Part shown: one piece after another, positions 28,914-29,311 of the stretch
Layout of the letters: each line of letters begins with the position of its first letter
Position numbering within the stretch: position 1 is the stretch's first letter
Sequence record: PQ666540
Direction: 5' to 3' (one strand)
DNA length: 64,000 nucleotides
Source: Shigella phage sb2
The notes under the pieces: model-generated
What the model saw: only the letters and a program-made list of their open reading frames with translations
Databases searched by the model: none
What the model was told of the DNA's origin: nothing
Program-made: the position numbers and the translations under genes

Positions 28914-29063
28914 TCAATTGATACATTCATATTTAACTTGTAACAGTAATAAACCCCAACCTATAATAAGTGTCGGAATCATACAAGGAACCGTTACGCT
29001 ATAGTATATACTTATTATAATCATCAAGATTAAAAGCAATACTGCTAAAATTTTGCTTTTCAT
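28914..29063 (-). CDS. small membrane peptide
   Basis: 49 codons MKSKILAVLLLILMIIISIYY...; ATGA overlap with imm stop. Confidence 0.4.
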   Translation of the reverse strand: MKSKILAVLLLILMIIISIYYSVTVPCMIPTLIIGWGLLLLQVKYECIN

Positions 29064-29311
29064 TCCTTCTCTCTGATGATAATTACTTGATTTGGTTGTG
29101 CGGATTTTTTAGTTTCACCAGCAATTGACCAAATAAATGTAATAAACCAACCAATAATTGACCAGTTAAACAGTAAAGATGTAAAAAAGATTCCTACTGT
29201 CGATTTTTACCCACGCATCAAGGCGATGAACCAAGGAAGCATGTATATAATAATATCCAACACGCCTGAAACTAAAACCAAAAAAATTGAACCTGCTACT
29301 AAAGTTTCCAT
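29060..29311 (-). pseudogene. imm: immunity protein Imm reading frame interrupted by in-frame TAA at 29207-29209
   Basis: METLVAGSIFLVLVSGVLDIIIYMLPWFIALMRG, TAA, then 48 more in-frame codons; total 83 codons equals T4 Imm length; two TM segments. Confidence 0.6.

Follow-up and report, generated by a model that had tools for sequence, protein, structure and literature searches.

We examined an interrupted reading frame on the minus strand of the Shigella phage sb2 record (PQ666540), in a stretch of 64,000 nucleotides that is called the window throughout. The frame is that of imm (superinfection immunity), broken by an in-frame TAA at codon 35, and is not an accidental pair of open reading frames. 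On the sequence comparisons described below, the TAA is probably an artefact of the deposited record and not a property of the phage (we put this at about 0.68). The window would then represent a natural T4-like genome overlaid by G:C>T:A consensus errors that fall in read-sized patches, with one such patch spanning imm codons 11–35 and turning Ser35 (TCA) into TAA. The actual phage would encode a normal 83-residue Imm with two membrane segments, predicted to block DNA entry of superinfecting T-even phages.

The imm reading frame and its relatives

Translation of the minus strand gave METLVAGSIFLVLVSGVLDIIIYMLPWFIALMRG, a stop, KSTVGIFFTSLLFNWSIIGWFITFIWSIAGETKKSAQPNQVIIIREKE and a second stop, i.e., 34 codons, the TAA, 48 codons and a terminal TGA, or 83 codons plus stop. 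The initial annotation had proposed just this two-part frame, summing to the length of T4 Imm, and both the frame and its identity were borne out by the translation, the alignment, the position and the domain search. With codon 35 masked, the frame was identical to T4 Imm at 79/83 residues (95%). With Ser put back at codon 35, it matched Pfam PF14373 (Imm_superinfect) at 58.1 bits over residues 22–63, where the curated cut-off is 27.9 bits; the C-terminal fragment alone scored 32.8 bits, and a PF14373 search with the N-terminal 34 aa gave no match. It is because the TAA lies inside the PF14373 domain of a frame matching T4 Imm that we read the locus as one broken gene. Its neighbours are imm.1 (DUF5481) on one side and gene 42 on the other, an order also found in T4 and at 20 further loci (Table 1).

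A Kyte-Doolittle scan showed a strong hydrophobic segment at residues 1–32 and a weaker one at about 39–65, with the stop falling between them. Inspection of the sequence just past the TAA revealed no in-frame start codon (ATG, GTG or TTG) accompanied by a ribosome-binding site, and for this reason we do not propose that the C-terminal half is expressed on its own. The 42.1/Y02C frame downstream is probably translationally coupled to imm, since its ATG overlaps the imm stop (ATGA).

Besides the TAA, the window frame carries two replacements, M11L and A19D, the second of which introduces a charged residue into the first hydrophobic segment. Both are also present in sb1 and sb4, the records of two sibling phages, and were found in no other phage records. 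The 28-mer with TCA (Ser35) at codon 35 occurs in 452 phage records (Tequatrovirus, ~450), and among phage records its TAA version occurs elsewhere in sb1 and sb4 only. Searches of IMG/VR, metagenome contigs and genome contigs gave no match to the TAA allele, and none of the public assemblies has the exact 34-aa product on record. Homologues of about 34 aa, the case that would speak against an interrupted gene, were likewise looked for: the 16 Imm homologues found were 72–102 aa long, none of them near 34 aa, and the 20 further loci, located through exact gp42 or imm.1 protein matches, all carried an 83-aa imm gene. The gp42 and imm.1 proteins are common to many phages, and their exact matches represent unrelated samples, all with an intact imm. 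Residues 8, 11, 19 and 35 of Imm were invariant in 24 clean imm sequences, among which natural variation was nearly all at third positions.

Table 1. Coordinates of the imm locus and of the in-frame stops and error patch discussed in the text (positions are those of the window; base changes are relative to clean relatives).
Feature	Position	Strand	Remarks
imm (superinfection immunity) frame	29060–29311	minus	broken at codon 35
imm codon 35, TAA	29207–29209	minus	relatives TCA (Ser); C>A at 29208, coding strand
imm codon 19, GAT (Asp), A19D	29255–29257	minus	G:C>T:A at 29256; all clean relatives GCT (Ala)
imm codon 11, TTG (Leu), M11L	29279–29281	minus	A:T>T:A at 29281; relatives ATG (Met)
42.1/Y02C, 49-codon ORF, intact	28914–29063	minus	downstream of imm; homologue has Pfam PF26865
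gene 42 (dCMP hydroxymethylase)	28166–28906		imm flank
imm.1	29319–29699		imm flank, then gene 43
gene 52 (topoisomerase medium subunit), E407, GAA>TAA	295–297	minus	G:C>T:A
gene 52 3' end, densest G:C>T:A patch	187–350	minus	7 sites pass the four-genome filter, ~160 nt
gene 56 (dCTPase), GAA GAA>TAA TAA	21152–21157	minus	adjacent, codons 151–152 of 172
gene 43 (DNA polymerase, essential), GAA>TAA twice	31986–31988, 31968–31970	minus	codons 197 and 203
rI.-1 codon 10, GGA>TGA	60348–60350	minus	G:C>T:A; private to window
small nrdC-region ORF, CGA>TGA	49320–49322		codon 99 of 105

In-frame stops and the G:C>T:A changes of the window

The window is a T4-like Tequatrovirus genome, 97.4% identical to Shigella phage pSs-1 and colinear with it from the first base. 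Its differences from pSs-1 are mainly transitions and mainly silent, so that most of the divergence is natural. A 282-codon gene lies at 27327–28175, where T4 has beta-glucosyltransferase; its homologues are 280 aa and belong to Pfam PF20691 (TAGT), and with such a gene at that place the DNA sugar modification may differ from T4's. No segD is found between this gene and gene 42 in the window, unlike SsoM113. The vs gene (valyl-tRNA synthetase modifier, 62921–63241) is 7 nt shorter than in pSs-1 (106 vs 115 codons), which may be natural variation in length, as the ECp13 version is also shorter than that of pSs-1.

In-frame stops were found by mapping pSs-1 genes onto the window, with gene names taken from the SsoM113 annotation. 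In addition to imm, TAA codons interrupt gene 52, gene 56 (twice) and gene 43 (twice), and TGA codons are present at two other loci (Table 1). The TGA in the nrdC-region ORF, which results from a transition at a variable site, may be natural. The double TAA of gene 56 is 21 codons from the gene end, and the one at 21152–21154 is common to the window and sb4 only; gene 56 is annotated in two pieces in ECp13 too. Both gene 43 codons are GAA in T4, pSs-1, sb1 and sb4. They are 18 nt apart, each with a G>T change after a run of G (ATGGAA, TGGGAA), and the longest ORF remaining in gene 43 has 675 codons (29880–31907).

Novel alleles were counted where four clean relatives (pSs-1, sb3, SsoM113 and ECp13) agree and lack them. 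By this filter the window has 58 G:C>T:A alleles, whereas each of three clean controls has about 25. The 58 comprise 37 missense, 7 nonsense, 11 silent and 3 non-coding changes; random G:C>T:A changes in these genes are expected to be 79% missense, 12% nonsense and 9% silent, and the nearness of the observed to the random proportions gives the changes the coding profile of an unselected process. Transitions in the window were 220 silent vs 41 missense. All seven G:C>T:A nonsense codons, that of imm included, belong to this class of 58 unselected-looking changes, in support of the suggestion made with the initial annotation that the in-frame ochre codons have a shared cause. In the four clean genomes there were no nonsense changes among the G:C>T:A alleles, and only one of any class, in SsoM113.

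Apart from being unselected and in excess as a single class, these changes are clustered and fall in essential genes, with two stops each in gene 43 and gene 56, both of which a viable phage needs. Twelve neighbour gaps were of 50 nt or less, vs 2.7 expected (P<0.0002), and the imm pair at 29208 and 29256 forms one such cluster. The densest patch, at the 3' end of gene 52, had 8 sites on an earlier two-reference list; it includes the E407 TAA, and within it the gene's own stop is lost (TGA>TTA, 187–189). From T4 genetics, two nonsense codons in the DNA polymerase gene would keep a phage from growing on an ordinary host, and the G:C>T:A layer is therefore not biology. Candidate physical causes are library damage, low depth and assembly choice.

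A search for an error motif (trinucleotides, and position frequencies over ±8 nt) revealed a mild G excess at -1 only, and repeated downstream contexts at error sites gave P of about 0.02. Context-specific basecalling error was considered as the source, and set aside as there was no strong motif around the G:C>T:A sites to demonstrate it. Regional co-variation of error density was also rejected, as 500-bp bins were uncorrelated between assemblies (Spearman ~0). Judged by private transversions alone, imm was not exceptional.

Three causes had been put forward for the ochre codons: systematic G-to-T error, a suppressor-dependent stock and deliberate changes. The unselected profile of the 58 G:C>T:A changes is best fitted by the first, and the other two found no support. 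Were the TAA codons read through by an ochre suppressor tRNA of host or phage, or TAA reassigned, then imm and the essential genes would be made full-length, which would account for in-frame TAA codons in several genes, essential ones among them. A T4 ochre suppressor derived from tRNA-Ser is known from classical genetics, and it would restore Ser35 of imm. However, the TAA codons replace Glu in five of six cases and Ser in imm only, so that no single suppressor restores all of them; TAA is the terminator of 67 of the 122 mapped window genes; and alongside the stops there are 37 missense changes of their class, the two kinds occurring in random proportion. The positions of the in-frame stops also differ among sb1, sb4 and the window. 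No tRNA gene was found within the window, and the ten tRNAs reported for each of the sibling phages include none with anticodon tta (PMC11993411). We regard suppression or recoding as very improbable.

Stops made on purpose, as engineered double-stop knock-outs or as an edited sequence, are equally hard to credit, even though the paired stops at two loci (gene 56 codons 151–152; gene 43 codons 197 and 203) have a knock-out-like appearance. A DNA polymerase knock-out would be a phage that cannot be grown, and the stops lie within clusters of missense and silent changes belonging to their own class. The imm TAA is present in the public GenBank records of both sb1 and sb4, and one gene 56 TAA likewise recurs in a sibling record, from phages described as environmental isolates (PMC11993411).

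Sibling assemblies and the origin of the imm stop

The window is from one of four Kolkata lake-water phages, ADG1 (PQ666539), AKR2 (PQ666540), CRD3 (PQ666541) and TMC4 (PQ666542), for which an enzymatic-fragmentation library was sequenced on NovaSeq 6000 and assembled with SKESA (PMC11993411). The first, third and fourth are sb1, sb3 and sb4, respectively. The sb3 genome, from the same study, is clean and has an intact imm. The sb1 assembly has 269 G:C>T:A changes, of which 28 are nonsense; sb4 has 159 G:C>T:A and 197 A:T>T:A changes, with 33 nonsense changes of all classes, and the A:T>T:A excess is confined to sb4, being absent from sb1 and the window. Both are deposited as "complete genome"; the first 64 kb of either record holds about 30 nonsense codons, and genes are annotated in pieces, i.e., the essential genes 43, 41, 44 and 52 and the large non-essential genes rIIA and nrdD. 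The placing of in-frame TAA codons is not conserved between the two assemblies and the window, and clean relatives have none of these codons. In imm, sb1 and sb4 have an additional TAA in place of Ser8 (G:C>T:A) that the window does not have, and this site and codon 35 are the only two nonsense sites common to sb1 and sb4.

We weighed whether the imm stop is part of the error layer or was inherited. If it is an error, then errors would have to recur at identical sites across libraries of the Kolkata study. Recurrence between assemblies is indicated by the G:C>T:A sites shared by sb1 and sb4, 16 vs 2.2 expected by chance, of which 12 are missense. Independent random errors were calculated to give only about 0.006 triple coincidences in 64 kb, which counts against an artefact; a rough model with uneven error rates among sites, fitted to the sb1–sb4 overlap, gave about 0.5 triple-shared error sites in 64 kb. 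From the counts alone, recurrence at imm is plausible but not compelling. Two other counts also stand against an artefact. The imm stop is common to three assemblies, whereas five of the six other G:C>T:A stops are not shared (the exception, 21154 in gene 56, is shared with sb4 alone); and the number of triple-shared G:C>T:A sites, two, is about what the natural spectrum predicts. Nor did the motif search yield a clear sequence context to account for recurrent errors.

The alternative is a real imm-null allele (M11L, A19D and Ser35 to ochre) in a lake-water T4-like lineage to which sb1, sb4 and the window belong. Only a 34-residue peptide with one hydrophobic segment would then be made from imm, and Imm exclusion would be lacking; the other stops of the window would still be sequencing errors. 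The TAA, D19 and L11 are common to three assemblies whose error sets otherwise overlap little, and sb1 and sb4 have no nonsense site in common outside this one non-essential gene. A phage with a genuine nonsense allele of imm would be viable, since imm is dispensable; the presence of several damaging changes within a single gene is typical of a pseudogene, and Spackle is intact in the window (23442–23735). Moreover, 51 novel alleles are common to all three assemblies, 48 of them outside imm, and they are mostly silent transitions; these natural-looking alleles outside imm mean that the window, sb1 and sb4 share real ancestry. Common ancestry extends to the neighbourhood of imm, where a 14-nt patch at 29743–29756 is among the shared alleles. 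This patch, in non-coding sequence between gene 43 and imm.1, has six differences from clean relatives in 14 nt, five of them common to the window, sb1 and sb4; at 29754 the window allele is novel and differs from the novel allele of sb1 and sb4. The whole resembles a patch left by natural recombination.

Against inheritance, every one of the three to four imm changes is a transversion of a class that predominates in the error layer, and these classes are scarce in clean genomes (G:C>T:A about 5% and A:T>T:A about 6–8% of changes). The allele is confined to three error-laden assemblies and is in neither sb3 nor about 450 other records. Its three carriers have three different natural alleles at imm codon 26, between D19 and the TAA, i.e., inside the shared changes, and their 3' haplotypes differ as well; this fits recurrence on separate backgrounds better than a single inherited block. 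Sites of unselected-looking G:C>T:A change are shared by sb1 and sb4 elsewhere, so that a mechanism for shared errors exists in any case. If the imm TAA is real, a natural lineage of T4-like Shigella phages of one lake would have lost Imm and kept Spackle, with the allele moved between co-circulating genomes by short-patch recombination. We consider this possible but unlikely.

Record error is preferred because of the mutation spectrum and the conserved residues that were hit: M11L, A19D, the TAA at codon 35 and the sb1/sb4 TAA at codon 8 are all error-class transversions at invariant residues. The imm change would accordingly be one more part of the error layer that also disrupts gene 43.

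Consequences and comparison with known phages

The window, sb1 and sb4 records contain consensus-level G:C>T:A errors that create false pseudogenes, that of DNA polymerase included, and they should not serve as a basis for arguments on selection, protein families or gene loss until the reads have been consulted. Should the stop in imm nevertheless prove real, it would add modestly to what is understood of the strictness with which superinfection exclusion is maintained by T-even phages in nature. It would be a natural example of such a phage giving up one of two superinfection-exclusion systems. The product would retain the first hydrophobic segment only, with A19D in it, and the 49-codon ORF downstream might lose its translational coupling. 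With Imm and Sp (Spackle) as the two systems, exclusion would be lowered and not abolished.

The sb1 (ADG1, PQ666539) and sb4 (TMC4, PQ666542) assemblies resemble the window in TAA35, D19, L11 and the coordinate frame, and in having a G:C>T:A excess with stops in essential genes. They differ from it in an error load that is several-fold heavier, in the extra TAA at imm codon 8, and in their other natural haplotypes. The nonsense codons of the window in genes 43, 56 and 52 recall the classical amber and ochre conditional-lethal mutants of T4, these being the kind of genes hit in the classical T4 mutant collections. The window differs from these mutants in that its stops are spread over many genes simultaneously and are accompanied by random-looking missense changes of one class; there is also no sign of a suppressor, and these phages were isolated from the environment. 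With T4 Imm itself (NP_049660; PF14373), the window frame shares its place between imm.1 and gene 42, its 83 codons and identity at 79/83 residues; it differs in TAA for TCA at codon 35, and in Leu11 and Asp19 for Met and Ala.
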